Positions 22,639-52,366 of a stretch of 64,000 bases of DNA are shown piece by piece. Each line of letters begins with the position of its first letter. The stretch's first letter is position 1. Made by a program: the position numbers and the translations under genes. The notes beneath the pieces are model-generated. The model saw only the letters and a list, made by a program, of their open reading frames with translations. It was not told where the DNA came from and made no database searches. This stretch comes from a virus (lineage: Duplodnaviria; Caudoviricetes): positions 42,925 through 106,924 of the IMG/VR virus record IMGVR_UViG_3300042268_000478; one strand, given 5' to 3'.

Positions 22639-22893
22639 AGTCTTGTGCTCCTGTGGTTTTCGCATAAAATAATTATGCGTCTTTTGCAGCCCATCAAAAA
22701 CTTCATTTACTACTCGTTATACTCCTCTGTGGTTTTTTAGGTAACTGTACTTGGTTAAAAAAAATAATTATATAACGTAATAATTATTTAATTATATATT
22801 GTAATAATAGAATATTGCATATTTCACCTCATTGCAAGTTTTTCCATTTAGCTGAGCTTAAAATATTTCACTATTTTTTTAATTTACTACTTT

Positions 22894-22909
22894 AATTTAC
22901 TAAATTAAC
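22894..22909 (+). promoter_or_regulatory. AATTTACTAAATTAAC operator-like box in switch region
   Basis: Same 16-mer recurs at 27247 and 43169. Confidence 0.6.
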
Positions 22910-22959
22910 CATTATAATAAACTTTATAATCTTTAAAAACCACAACAAAAGGAAACCAC

Positions 22960-23286
22960 ATGCATAAAAAAAGAGAATATCCTGAAGGGCTAATGGTTAA
23001 GATCAAACATCAATTAATCATTGGCTTCCTCGAAAAACAACGACTGAAAGGTAAATCAAACACTGAGATTGTTGAACACGCCTTGGCGAGCTTTCTCGGC
23101 ATTTCTTTGCCGGACAAGAAATATGGAACAAGGGCAAGAAAAAGCGGAGCTGACTACACAAAAGGGCTTCCGGTAAAAATCAGCGAGAACAGCCTGATCA
23201 AAGAAATACTTTATAGAAGAACAGCCAAAGGCATCCCGCATTGTTTCACTGTTGAGAAAGCAATGCTCGCCTACATGGAGGGATGA
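22960..23286 (+). CDS. Cro-position regulator with two tandem ribbon-helix-helix-like repeats
   Basis: YPEGLMVKI…EIVEHALASFL / YTKGLPVKI…TVEKAMLAYM internal duplication. Confidence 0.55.
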   Translation: MHKKREYPEGLMVKIKHQLIIGFLEKQRLKGKSNTEIVEHALASFLGISLPDKKYGTRARKSGADYTKGLPVKISENSLIKEILYRRTAKGIPHCFTVEKAMLAYMEG

Positions 23287-23287
23287 A

Positions 23288-23587
23288 ATGAATAGTGTAG
23301 CAAAGATACCTGAAAGCATTGTGACTTCAGTCTCAGTACTACTCCATCCATATGGCATAGATTTCAAGGAGCTTTTGAATAAGGCAAAAGATAATTTCGG
23401 CAAAACAGAAACAAAATACATGACCCCTTCACAGGCAGCACAGTATTGCGGTTTTTCTCCAAAAACAATTAGAGACAAAGCTCTTGCTGGAGAAATAGAC
23501 TCTACGAGAATTGGGCATTCCGAAAAAAGCCGAGTTCTAATCTTAAAAAGCAGTTTGGACGCATGGCTTGAAAGTTTCAAGTCATAA
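23288..23587 (+). CDS. Excisionase-like HTH_17 protein
   Basis: YMTPSQAAQYCGFSPKTIRD…RIG…ILKSSLDAWL. Confidence 0.8.
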   Translation: MNSVAKIPESIVTSVSVLLHPYGIDFKELLNKAKDNFGKTETKYMTPSQAAQYCGFSPKTIRDKALAGEIDSTRIGHSEKSRVLILKSSLDAWLESFKS

Positions 23588-23623
23588 CATAAAAAACCAC
23601 AAAAGAAAGAAAAGGAGCTTATC

Positions 23624-24340
23624 ATGAGCAACCTCGTAATCGCAAACGAAACAATCACGGCACTGGACAATGCGGCAAAAGCTGGATTGATTGCCCAGAA
23701 AGAAGCAAGCCAGTTTAAGAAAATGGCTTTAGTTGCCGGAGCAATTCAGGAATTAAGGGCTTTGCTTACTCCTAAAGTCATGGCTCCCGTTATGGCTTTG
23801 CAAGGCACGGCTATTGGATTCAGAACCGACAAAGACGGCAAAGGAGGATATGACGTTGATACCGTAAAAGATTGCCTCATTGAAGCTACTCTTCAGGGCG
23901 TTTTTCCGGTAGGGAACGAATTCAATATCATCGCCAGCAGGTGCTATATCACCAAGGAAGGTTTCGGGCATAAACTTCGTGATATTCCTGGGCTTTCCTA
24001 CATGATTACTCCATCCGTGCCGGTAATGAGAAACGGTGGTGCTGTTGTAAAAATGCTTGTTGAATGGACTTACAACGGCAAGTCTAACTCCAGAGAGCTA
24101 GAGATTGCCGTCAGGGTGAATAACGGCATGGGAACCGATGCTATCATTGGAAAAGCTGAACGCAAAGCCCGTGCATGGCTGTACAAAGCAGTTACGGGAC
24201 AGGAAATCGGCGAAGGCGATGTCGAAGACTTGGACGCTATTGACGTTACGGTTACTGATGTTGAAGCAACCTCCCCATTTGAGGAAGAAGCAACAACTGA
24301 ACCGCCACCGGAAGAAGCGCAAGACGAACTCCCAATGTAA
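23624..24340 (+). CDS. Putative single-strand annealing/recombination protein
   Basis: Upstream of exonuclease; acidic C-terminal tail; family only tentative. Confidence 0.45.
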   Translation: MSNLVIANETITALDNAAKAGLIAQKEASQFKKMALVAGAIQELRALLTPKVMAPVMALQGTAIGFRTDKDGKGGYDVDTVKDCLIEATLQGVFPVGNEFNIIASRCYITKEGFGHKLRDIPGLSYMITPSVPVMRNGGAVVKMLVEWTYNGKSNSRELEIAVRVNNGMGTDAIIGKAERKARAWLYKAVTGQEIGEGDVEDLDAIDVTVTDVEATSPFEEEATTEPPPEEAQDELPM

Positions 24341-24346
24341 ATACAC

Positions 24347-24368
24347 AGGCGGCTGAAATATGCCGCCT
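24347..24368 (+). repeat. Hairpin GGCGGC-TGAAATAT-GCCGCC, copy 1
   Basis: Identical 20-mer inside 51191-51214. Confidence 0.75.
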
Positions 24369-49976: not shown

Positions 49977-49991
49977 ACAAGGAGCTGAATT

Positions 49992-51179
49992 ATGGCTTTT
50001 GATTTTGGACAATTCAATGAATTTTCTGATGACGTAACTAAGGGTGATCCGGTAGTAATGGCGGTTGCCAAGGCGATCGAGCTCGGTCCTTTTAAAGGCG
50101 CGTTCTATCAGGCTATGAGTGCGCCTCGCATAGGCATCACCCAGAAGCAGTTTGATGTATATTCTCGCAGTAAAACCAGCCGTGACGGCGTTATCGGTGA
50201 CGGTGCCGCTGGTGGTTGGGACGACAGTGCGACTACTGGTCTGAAAATGCCAGCCGACGTTCTGAAGGGCTTGACCATCGGTCACGTTCTGAAGATTGAG
50301 AACGAAGTCGTGAACATTAAAGCGGTTGACAGAGCTGCAAACACTATTGATGTTTATGCTCGTGGCGATGCTGGAACCACTGCGGCAGCTCATGCTGACC
50401 AGACCGCATTCATCGTTATTGGTTATGCCGGTTCTGATACTGACCTCAAGAATGTTGAGAGCATGTCTGAAACCACTAACCTGTACAGCAATTACGTGCA
50501 GACCATCTTTGAGGTAATGGACTGGACTAAACACGCAGAGCTTACCCGTAAGGGCTTGAGTTCAGCCAATGCTACCATTATCCTGGTGCAGGAAGCTGAA
50601 ATCCGTGTTGCGGAAATACTCTCTCGCATGGCAATCCACGGCTACAAGCAGAAGCCGGTTGACGGCTCAAAGCGTTACATGTCTGCCGGACTGTATCACC
50701 AGCTTGCGGATTCTAATAGTGGCAACAGGGCACCGCTCAGCTATAACGCCAATGGAGCTCTGACCGAAGCCAAAGTTAATTCCGCTATTAAAGAAGTCTT
50801 TAATAACGGTGGTGTTGTGGATACTATCTGGGCATCCCCAACCAACAAGGGTATTATCAATACCTTCAACATGGCAAACAGCCAGCTCGCGGTACAGACC
50901 AGCAAAGCCGATCACGTTGCCGGTGTATACATTGATTATATCAATTACGAAGGAAAGCTTATCGGTGTCCGTGTTGACTCTGACCTTGGCGATGACAAGC
51001 TTCCAATCGTCAAACAGGCTGACTGTAAAAAAGGTTGGCTTGAGGGAGACGGCTTGCGCAAGCAGGACGAACCTACCCAGTCCAGCCGTGAGTTCAAGAA
51101 ATCTCTTCAGGGGTCTGTCGGATTCCAGATTGAGAACGTAGGTGTAAACCATACCTACCTCTACGGAATCACCGGCTAA
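49992..51179 (+). CDS. Major capsid protein (DUF5309/SU10-like)
   Basis: 395 aa after scaffold; NYVQTIFE, RYMSAGL, GALTE. Confidence 0.85.
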   Translation: MAFDFGQFNEFSDDVTKGDPVVMAVAKAIELGPFKGAFYQAMSAPRIGITQKQFDVYSRSKTSRDGVIGDGAAGGWDDSATTGLKMPADVLKGLTIGHVLKIENEVVNIKAVDRAANTIDVYARGDAGTTAAAHADQTAFIVIGYAGSDTDLKNVESMSETTNLYSNYVQTIFEVMDWTKHAELTRKGLSSANATIILVQEAEIRVAEILSRMAIHGYKQKPVDGSKRYMSAGLYHQLADSNSGNRAPLSYNANGALTEAKVNSAIKEVFNNGGVVDTIWASPTNKGIINTFNMANSQLAVQTSKADHVAGVYIDYINYEGKLIGVRVDSDLGDDKLPIVKQADCKKGWLEGDGLRKQDEPTQSSREFKKSLQGSVGFQIENVGVNHTYLYGITG

Positions 51180-51190
51180 GCCTAACCACA

Positions 51191-51214
51191 TGGGCGGCTG
51201 AAATATGCCGCCCA
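51191..51214 (+). repeat. Hairpin GGCGGC-TGAAATAT-GCCGCC, copy 2
   Basis: Downstream of the capsid stop; flanked by ACCACA boxes. Confidence 0.75.
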
Positions 51215-51244
51215 GACTTACCACAAAAGAAGGAAACCGGAACC

Positions 51245-51892
51245 ATGACAAAAACCGAACAGAAACAAATAATTTATGACCAGCTTGTAGAACTTGGCAG
51301 TAGACCGCCGAAAATAGCCAGACTGTGCAGACTCGAAGACCTTCAGGCAGCTTTGAAAAAAGCCCAGAAAGAAGCTGAAAAGGCTGAAAAACAGGAAAAG
51401 CCGTCAAATGAGGAAGCTGCACAAAAATCCTCAGAAGAAACAGAGAAGAAAACGGTTTCTACCTCAAAAACTCCTGAACAACAAGACTTGGCTGGCACTG
51501 GTATAGCAGATGCTCAGCATGTGCAAACGCCCCAAAACACGGAAAAAGACGAAAAACCTGCACAGCAAGTGCCTGGCAATAGTGAAACAGATGTCGAACA
51601 AGTGCCGGAAAAGACTGAAAAGTCTGAAAAACCGGAGGTTTCACCTCAAACTCCCGAAAATGCACAGCATATGCATAGCACAAGTAATACGTCTGCACAC
51701 TTAGACGGAGTCGAAGACGAAGACGATAATATTATTATTCCTAACGGAATAGATAACCGCACGGTTATCCCAACTCTGACATTTAAATCATCAGGCTGGT
51801 GTGAAGAGCTCAAGAAAAGCTATTTCCGTGGTTCATATAAGCCACAGAGCATAGCGGAATACGACGCTCTGAAACCCTACGCCAAAAAATAA
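51245..51892 (+). CDS. Hypothetical protein with low-complexity E/K/P linker
   Basis: ORF after capsid gene. Confidence 0.65.
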   Translation: MTKTEQKQIIYDQLVELGSRPPKIARLCRLEDLQAALKKAQKEAEKAEKQEKPSNEEAAQKSSEETEKKTVSTSKTPEQQDLAGTGIADAQHVQTPQNTEKDEKPAQQVPGNSETDVEQVPEKTEKSEKPEVSPQTPENAQHMHSTSNTSAHLDGVEDEDDNIIIPNGIDNRTVIPTLTFKSSGWCEELKKSYFRGSYKPQSIAEYDALKPYAKK

Positions 51893-51904
51893 GGACTTCC
51901 CAAG

Positions 51905-52291
51905 ATGACTGATTTAGAGCTGTTGCAATATGTTGATGGATACTTCAACACCCATCTCGATAAAACCTTCTGGACTGGATTGACTGAAGAAATGCGCATG
52001 TCGAGTATTGCGATGGCTCAATCAGATATCTTGGCTGAACTCAATGCGGATGAACTTGATTCAACCAATATTCCGTCTCTCAAGGCAGTAGCGGAACAAG
52101 CCGTTTATCTGGCACGCAACTACGAGAATCTCAATGAGAACAAGATTGCGACCAGCGAAAACATTGAGGGCATTTCCACCGGCTACACCCTGATTGGAAA
52201 CAAGCCTGGTATCTCTCATCGGGCTGTTTCATTCATTAAACAGGCTAAAAAAGCCAATTTAAGCCGTTTTACGAGCTTCTCACGTGGATAA
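51905..52291 (+). CDS. Head-tail connector/adaptor
   Basis: YF…W, KAVAEQAVYL, SENIEGIS.GY. Confidence 0.7.
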   Translation: MTDLELLQYVDGYFNTHLDKTFWTGLTEEMRMSSIAMAQSDILAELNADELDSTNIPSLKAVAEQAVYLARNYENLNENKIATSENIEGISTGYTLIGNKPGISHRAVSFIKQAKKANLSRFTSFSRG

Positions 52292-52366
52292 ATACAATTT
52301 ACCATACAAACCACACAAAAGTTAATAAAGTCCACCACAGGGCTTTAAAATGGATTTTAGACTAGC

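Follow-up and report, generated by a model that had tools for sequence, protein, structure and literature searches.

The closest described phenomenon to the element reported here, the heptamer AACCACA (hereafter the box), which recurs at the starts of prophage genes in a 64,000-nt stretch of viral DNA (hereafter the window; positions 42,925 to 106,924, the last 64 kb, of the 106.9-kb virus contig IMGVR_UViG_3300042268_000478), is the start-associated sequence (SAS) of cluster K mycobacteriophages, which was described by Pope et al. 2011 (PMC3203893) and whose function was still unverified in 2025 (PMC12699233). The SAS is a 13-mer that contains the core of the Shine-Dalgarno (SD) sequence and precedes start codons by a fixed 3-7 bp, and in the extended SAS 17-bp imperfect inverted repeats are found upstream of half the sites (PMC3203893). 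Both the SAS and the box are short asymmetric words present in 10-20 copies, in a single orientation, upstream of mainly non-structural gene starts; both favour genes that are not translationally coupled, are kept across subgroups at different gene families, vary in copy number between related phages and are essentially absent from the host (for the box, from the related hosts tested). The box differs in that it is 7-10 nt long, has no G or U, stands beside the SD and not in its place and is often doubled; its end lies between -1 and 54 nt from the start codon, as opposed to a fixed 3-7 bp, its sequence is unlike the cluster K 13-mer consensus, no 17-bp inverted-repeat extension was seen at the boxes, the host phylum is another one and two head-module genes also carry it. 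Given that the box fails the defining sequence and position features of the SAS, it is not an SAS member.

The box was also compared with the C/A-rich, ACA-containing translation enhancers of enterobacteria, which have been found experimentally to be independent of exact SD spacing and additive by copy number, and which are targets of the GU-rich small RNA (sRNA) GcvB (PMC3879156). It resembles these in being made up of A and C only, containing ACA, lying just upstream of or inside the ribosome-binding site and being predicted unpaired, but the enterobacterial enhancers are degenerate and belong to host genes, whereas the box recurs as one exact word, 21 times here and again in diverged phages, does not occur in host-type leaders and has no GU-rich partner in the DNA searched. 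Cluster A stoperators are 13-bp asymmetric DNA sites to which the immunity repressor binds as a monomer, and they vary with it (PMC9283540; PMC6550527). Like them, the box is present in many asymmetric intergenic copies oriented with transcription across the prophage, but it is shorter, is tied to the SD or ATG and stays invariant while repressors and palindromic operators diverge. The likeness to RegA, RegB and CsrA would lie in post-transcriptional control, by a phage or a global regulator, at the ribosome-binding sites of a set of genes; T4 RegA sites are degenerate and overlap the AUG, T4 RegB cuts the SD word itself and CsrA reads GGA in loops. In contrast to the RegA and CsrA systems, no cognate RNA-binding regulator gene was found to travel with the boxes, and the cold-shock gene of the prophage is absent from box-bearing relatives.

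The prophage occupies the window from 20.6 kb onwards, is cut off where the record ends and has a G+C content of about 42%; its gene map was curated, the starts being set by eye via open reading frames (ORFs), SD sites and homologues. The box was found 28 times in the window compared with 7.9 ± 3.1 times in shuffled sequences (100 shuffles, maximum 17). The excess was confined to 20.6-52.3 kb, and the remainder of the 107-kb record, including the other 43 kb, was at background level. By gene direction the prophage copies were 21 sense and 2 antisense. These counts bear out two claims of a first-pass annotation of this DNA, an excess of copies over chance and, now by exhaustive count, a strand bias; the coordinates listed there were all exact matches, the partial ACCACA copies at 24400 and 51220 were also present, and the copies missing from it were antisense inside prophage genes (33315 and 41653) or outside the prophage (68, 12528, 17422 and 19658).

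In the non-coding DNA of the prophage (3.9 kb) 18 sense copies were found where 0.39 were expected from a first-order model of that DNA, which is a 46-fold enrichment over a composition-matched model (Poisson, p ~5×10−24), and the box is the most frequent 7-mer there, exceeding SD-related words. The coding DNA (37.8 kb) held 2 sense copies, both at gene ends, and 2 antisense copies. Likewise, AACCA was continued by CA in 18/26 cases in non-coding DNA compared with 2/64 in coding DNA. Exact boxes outnumbered one-mismatch variants in non-coding DNA (21 versus 10). All seven positions are invariant and the flanks lean weakly towards A/T from -3 to -1 (A at the first of these positions, A/T at the last) and then mildly towards A/G, with at most 0.5 bit per position beyond -3, so that the information is limited to 7-10 nt. 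Given that the flanks carry so little information, the boxes are not copies of a longer cassette.

A box is present in the leader of 14 of the approximately 62 genes. The distances from the end of the box to the start codon are -1, -1, 0, 2, 10, 13, 13, 15, 16, 17, 18, 18, 20, 22, 26, 32, 34, 50, 51 and 54 nt, with 16/20 copies ending within 26 nt. The earlier claim that the boxes lie near starts, follow gene orientation and often come in pairs thus agrees with the full count, every leader copy ending between -1 and 54 nt from a start. The box stands before or after the SD, often as a pair, and excludes the SD itself; the layout seen most often, in this window as in relatives, has the box either 0-5 nt 5' of the SD or serving as the SD-ATG spacer, and in five leaders the SD is flanked, a second full or partial box occupying the spacer between SD and ATG. 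Three copies lie exactly 7 nt past the stop codon of the upstream gene, and in long gaps (125-400 nt) the boxes lie in the final 20-40 nt, downstream of promoter-like or operator-like sequences. Where a gene overlaps the one upstream of it, there is no box. The genes with boxes belong mostly to the early operons and to an island of small genes, with two in the head module, and there are no boxes in the 12-kb tail region.

In the immunity region, the CI-like repressor is encoded leftward on the minus strand (actual start at 22638) and both of its boxes are on that strand, so that box orientation tracks the gene: the proximal box (22652..22658) abuts the SD, 13 nt before ATG 22638, and the distal box (22728..22734) abuts the SD of a 23-codon upstream ORF, 21 nt before it. 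This upstream ORF (22706-22635, minus strand) has a TGA that overlaps the repressor ATG (an ATGA overlap, as read from the sequence). All further boxes in the prophage leaders are on the plus strand. The first rightward early gene (ATG 22960) has a pair at 22938..22944 and 22954..22960, the final base of the latter being the A of the ATG. The box of the next leader (23595..23601), 7 nt past a stop and 22 nt before ATG 23624, belongs to a gene for a 238-aa protein (23624-24340), and the exonuclease leader has a box at 24383..24389, 3' of a hairpin, and a partial box (6/7) at 24400..24405, 2 nt before ATG 24408. Further into the early region, the AAA-ATPase gene (ATG 27351) has boxes at 27310..27316 and 27334..27340, the second abutting the SD; a box at 29424..29430 lies 13 nt before ATG 29444, which has a weak SD; and the pair of the cold-shock-domain gene (29766..29772 and 29782..29788) flanks the SD, the second copy ending 2 nt before ATG 29791.

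Downstream of these genes, a box at 37872..37878 precedes ATG 37895 by 16 nt, and the gene with ATG 38141 has one box at 38114..38120 and a second, at 38135..38141, that overlaps the ATG. The two overlaps with an ATG that had been reported (22954 and 38135) are thus present, and a further box at 44483 abuts one. In the small-gene island, the leader of gene 43271 has a one-mismatch variant (43252..43258), and a box at 43656..43662 is found 7 nt past the upstream stop and 17 nt before ATG 43680. ATG 44020 is preceded by three copies, a box at the 3' end of gene 43680-43973 (43963..43969), a second box (43981..43987) and a one-mismatch variant (43994..44000). The DUF3846 gene (ATG 44490) has a box at 44457..44463, a variant at 44468..44474 and a box at 44483..44489, the last forming the SD-ATG spacer. 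In the head module, a box at 51184..51190 lies 4 nt past the stop of the capsid gene and is followed by a hairpin and by a partial box (51220..51225) ahead of the SD of ATG 51245. The leader of the minor head protein gene has a box at 52309..52315 and a partial box at 52334..52339, 10 nt before a 6-codon upstream ORF (52350-52370), the TGA of which overlaps ATG 52367 of the minor head protein (again ATGA, read from the sequence). The arrangement of the two upstream ORFs suggests coupling by termination and reinitiation for the repressor and the minor head protein.

The closest terminases, 59-79% identical, were from metagenome-assembled genomes (MAGs) labelled Lentisphaerota or Victivallaceae, and because the nearest relatives have this origin the host is presumably an uncultured Lentisphaerota-type bacterium. 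Related terminases were present in 55/401 genomes sampled from the Lentisphaerota phylum. Two related prophages were compared with that of the window, one in genome G001 (terminase 79% identical) with four leader boxes, and one on contig C65 of genome G002 (terminase 72% identical, 18.6 kb from integrase to terminase) with eight boxes, all of which are gene-sense leader copies. All three phages have a box in the repressor leader, and two of them have one in that of the integrase; the exact copy of the window (20616..20622, plus strand) lies instead within codons 7-9 of the integrase gene. The leaders of the 238-aa protein and the exonuclease have a box in 2/3 phages and one-mismatch variants in the third; the G001 prophage keeps the box at the orthologous leader of the former gene, and a block of DNA homology with this prophage begins at 23594, at the box at 23595. 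The DNA identity of genes among the three phages is about 65-75% and their leaders are unalignable. Given that the box is kept while the leaders do not align, it is, on the strength of these comparisons, maintained by selection.

The number of boxes shifts quickly among relatives (21, 8, 4 and 1). The exonuclease-leader box and its hairpin were also found in C65 and in locus L248, with variants in G001 and L243, and metagenome contigs encoding a 56-58% identical 238-aa protein have the order hairpin, box or variant, SD, exonuclease. Isolated leader copies were present in L077, L241, L243, L248 and G043, and in G259 (terminase 71% identical), as in the more distant relatives, no box was found at the orthologous genes. 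More distant relatives (large terminase subunit, TerL, at most 59% and the 238-aa protein at most 58% identical) showed no enrichment and no obvious replacement motif in a de novo search, which was limited by its reliance on a crude ORF caller.

These data leave little room for the idea that the box has no function of its own and is a by-product of A-rich leaders, copied leader cassettes or recombination junctions. The leaders are A-rich and one homology block with a relative does start exactly at a box, but the enrichment over the composition-matched model, the difference between coding and non-coding DNA in the continuation of AACCA, the near lack of information in the flanks and the conservation at orthologous leaders make this explanation highly improbable.

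If the box were a general feature of translation in the host, one would expect to find it at similar frequency in host leaders. This was examined in related genomes, the prophage's own host not being in the record. In 400 kb taken evenly from a 4.3-Mb Victivallaceae chromosome that bears a related prophage, the heptamer was present 41 times on both strands, compared with about 49 expected for uniform sequence, and none of 306 called genes had a box in the leader (Fisher p = 4×10−12 versus 14/62 in the prophage). In the second host genome (G002, 5.7 Mb) the 9-mer with two extra A's gave 57 matches and its reversed control 32, the expectation being about 43. Five host-type leaders in G002 had a box abutting the SD, the chance estimate being about 3 per ~4,500 genes, and in the reversed-pattern control there were 6 matches versus 13; the leaders examined precede genes for a PEGA-domain protein, a GH123-like hydrolase and a GNAT acetyltransferase. 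Equal use in host leaders, which the first-pass annotation had named among the findings that would refute its proposal, was thus not seen (0/306 in one related host and background in the other), and a generic host enhancer was rejected since the box is absent from host-type leaders and near background in G002. Given that diverged relatives keep the box and host genes are without it, the box is a phage-private gene-expression signal. The case is unusually clean: the SD is not part of the word, diverged phages have it unchanged and host-type genes do without it.

G002 also contains a multi-copy host repeat with the heptamer (contigs C91, C121, C360, C363, C380, C518, C540 and C649; loci L430, L432 and L434). 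The three copies that were read do not stand before genes; each has a GC hairpin followed by the heptamer, then a spacer, a partial copy of 6 nt and repeats of the CACAGAG type. Several copies of the repeat are found close to small-contig ends.

Folding predictions leave the boxes single-stranded (mean unpaired probability 0.83 versus 0.53), and the start regions that carry them fold more weakly than others (-2.4 versus -6.4 kcal/mol, p = 0.0014). The span of information, 7-10 nt, is that of single-strand RNA-binding domains, and the variable position and tandem copies match ACA enhancers that are flexible in position and additive. Taken together, we tentatively favour, with a little less than even confidence, the reading that the box is an mRNA element of the same kind as the C/A-rich ACA translation enhancers and that a factor shared by these phages reads it; action at the RNA level, a positive effect and the identity of the reader are inferred. 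The box would then be a cis-acting element of the mRNA leader, stereotyped, unstructured and built only of A and C with an ACA, adjoining the SD or start codon of early and lysogeny genes that are initiated independently. It would most likely promote loading of the 30S subunit, as do the enterobacterial C/A-rich ACA enhancers, and its reader would most likely be supplied by the host, either the ribosome or an abundant single-strand RNA-binding protein. The earlier proposal of an RNA-level operator is compatible with this in its mRNA-level part, for which position, unpairedness and conservation speak, while its preference for repression of the RegA or CsrA type over stimulation gained no support.

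Several observations weigh against this enhancer-like reading. The excess of exact boxes over variants is stricter than expected of a generic C/A-rich enhancer, the bias in strand and towards intergenic DNA is equally expected of orientation-dependent DNA sites, and the weaker folding is partly a trivial consequence of A/C composition. It would be strange for a general enhancer to be missing from host-type genes, as this word is, and the 16S rRNA of the related host has no complement of the heptamer. Because the heptamer is strict and host-type genes are without it, a specific reader is expected, which argues against a purely generic enhancer. As regards the 16S rRNA, the gene of the related Victivallaceae chromosome has a canonical anti-SD tail, and the only two complements, of 6 nt each, are at ~254 and ~1451 of the gene, outside the 3' tail that pairs with mRNA; the box, which consists of A and C only, cannot wobble-pair. 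Pairing of the box with 16S rRNA was rejected on this related sequence, the rRNA of the true host not being in the record.

Structural companions of the box were examined as well. The first-pass annotation had described GNRA mini-hairpins within the pairs at 27310 and 38114; these are present, but they have no special stability (-4.8 and -1.1 kcal/mol, z ~0), and as they were no more stable than shuffles they were rejected as a component of the element. A test for a lambda-type nut site (boxA and boxB) gave a GNRA-like hairpin at 2/21 boxes, not more stable than shuffles. Two sites, the only ones with an adjoining GC hairpin, have nearly identical hairpins with a common 8-nt loop on the plus strand, one GC-rich by the exonuclease-leader box (24347..24368, -14.8 kcal/mol, z = -2.8) and one between the box and partial box downstream of the capsid gene (51191..51214, -18.1 kcal/mol, z = -2.7). 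Promoters of the sigma-70 type and terminators tied to the boxes were rejected, the scans being at chance level.

The gene repertoires of the three phages restrict what the reader could be. Common to all are the integrase, the repressor, an HTH_17 protein, the 238-aa protein, the exonuclease, a few small genes and the virion genes, so that the reader is narrowed to something shared by phages with few genes in common. The first candidate that had been put forward, the cold-shock-domain protein with an Arg-rich tail (29791..30069, plus strand; PF00313, 67.9 bits; phrog_729), was not borne out, since no orthologue of its gene was found in the two box-bearing relatives with complete early regions; it was rejected as a common reader, its matches in IMG/VR being generic cold-shock domains without box enrichment. 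Given that the reader would be common to phages with different gene sets, it is most likely supplied by the host and is not the cold-shock protein of this phage. Of the early proteins, the 238-aa protein is the best conserved (76% and 66% identical to those of the relatives), and it gave no sequence match in Pfam, PHROG or PDB. Its structural model (pLDDT 78) gave weak, repeated matches to the Rad52/Mgm101 fold (E of at least 0.006) and its gene is directly upstream of the exonuclease, because of which it is probably a single-strand annealing protein and a candidate for a new family; with this function deemed more likely, it was rejected as the box reader.

The same evidence bears on an RNA operator for a dedicated regulator, that is, a RegA- or CsrA-like protein such as the cold-shock protein, or a GU-rich sRNA, that would silence or time translation of the early set. 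The boxes flank or abut the SD and ATG, a strict heptamer is what a specific reader or a 7-nt seed would require, and the SD of the gene for the Arg-rich-tailed cold-shock protein is itself clamped by two boxes. GcvB silences C/A-rich enhancers in this manner (PMC3879156), and on the plus strand at 22652-22685, opposite the repressor leader, the one arrangement in non-coding DNA with the box complement is followed by a hairpin and T-run. This complement-plus-terminator arrangement is, however, not conserved in the relatives, and no further complement was found in non-coding DNA of the window or the G001 prophage. Likewise, a search for double complements in three host-type genomes gave only an unrelated repeat family and chance matches, and no conserved complementary RNA that could act as a GU-rich silencing sRNA was detected in the window (where the prophage is cut), the G001 prophage or those three genomes. 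No homologue of RegA, CsrA or RegB was detected in the window. The boxes also span lysogeny genes (repressor and integrase) and lytic early genes alike. Together with the lack of a cold-shock orthologue in the relatives, this makes such an operator rather unlikely.

We consider an asymmetric DNA site just as doubtful. Here a conserved phage protein, either the repressor, by its N-terminal helix-turn-helix (HTH), or the HTH_17 protein, would bind the box and block or modulate transcription through the prophage in the manner of the cluster A stoperators, whose signature of many asymmetric copies in short intergenic spaces and in one orientation (PMC9283540) it shares. Boxes are present within the immunity region, on both of its sides, the HTH_17 protein is common to the three phages, and part of the putative recognition helix of the repressor is conserved across them. 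The repressors as a whole are only 35-51% identical, and a second motif, a near-palindrome of about 15 bp with the core TTTACTAAA, is found in promoter-like regions of the early operons (22878-22908, 27199-27278 and 43169-43235, with single copies at 34695 and 48825). This palindromic motif was not found in the two related prophages, which bear inverted repeats of their own, and the true operator of the repressor/Cro pair is probably this motif. The box is identical in all three phages while repressors and palindromes diverge, which argues against a stoperator-type repressor site; it is in addition shorter (7-10 nt versus 13 bp), hugs the SD or ATG and not promoters, and does not occur in the 12-kb tail region. 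A reading at the DNA level is weakened accordingly. The box is also not a DnaA box (the typically clustered 9-mer TTWTNCACA), of which it matches, together with its flank, 6-7/9 positions with position 4 always A and its copies specific to leaders, and among 100 of 171 listed matches in G001 the canonical DnaA word formed no tight cluster.

The word could alternatively be recognized by a sequence-specific endoribonuclease like T4 RegB or MazF, which would process or inactivate early transcripts at the ribosome-binding site or yield mRNAs with short leaders. The word is strict and short, contains ACA, is predicted single-stranded and is located at ribosome-binding sites; in several cases a copy is found 4-11 nt past an upstream stop or by stable hairpins that might protect 3' ends, and sense copies are nearly absent from coding interiors. 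Given that no candidate nuclease is common to the three phages and that repressor and integrase would be hit as well, we regard this as improbable.

In a further reading, which we hold to be possible though rather less probable than not, the heptamer would be the address word of a dedicated reader, be it a protein of the host that binds RNA, a part of the ribosome or an RNA, by which translation of lysogeny and early genes is set co-ordinately in Lentisphaerota/Victivallaceae prophages. If true, this would be a phage-private translational regulon of a Lentisphaerota/Victivallaceae prophage lineage. We know of no studied phage biology in the Lentisphaerota/Victivallaceae phylum. As far as the searched literature shows, the box is the first regulatory signal for prophages of this group, and among the matches listed the heptamer itself was found in the literature in unrelated contexts only.

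A scan of IMG/VR for the box-SD-box pattern gave mainly repeats coding for Thr/Gly, plus a group of cyanophages. Three T7-like cyanophage contigs (L305, L334 and L335, terminase 92% identical to that of Prochlorococcus phage P-SCSP2) have the heptamer directly 5' of the ATG at 5-6 early genes within 4-7 kb, often without an SD and preceded by a common longer upstream sequence, and the isolate P-SCSP2 has 7 sense and 1 antisense heptamers, of which only two are in leaders. With a dedicated reader, these copies in Prochlorococcus phages would point to a more general SD-independent initiation signal used by phages.

The first gene of the prophage encodes the tyrosine integrase (20596-21939). Upstream of it, a 56-nt stretch (20408-20463) shares 89% identity with its positional counterpart in G002 contig C65, which far exceeds the 65-75% of genes, and is possibly the core of an attachment site. 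The rightward early operon, which encodes the HTH_17 protein, the 238-aa protein and the exonuclease, is followed by genes for a replication initiator and loader, the AAA ATPase, the cold-shock-domain protein and methyltransferases. The late order is terminase, an island, then portal, scaffold, capsid and tail genes. The terminase-portal island contains a gene with an AbiTii domain (PF18864, 154 bits) at 42181-43134 on the minus strand, opposed to the direction of the phage genes. Genes for tRNA-Met (CAT) and tRNA-Gly (TCC) are adjacent at 54107-54259 between the head and tail modules and were the sole matches in a search for known RNA families. Terminator-like hairpins at 47300-47336, 54975-55005 and 59865-59895 have an SD inside the 3' arm followed by a T run and immediately by an ATG, which is that of the portal gene, gene 55006 and gene 59896, respectively.

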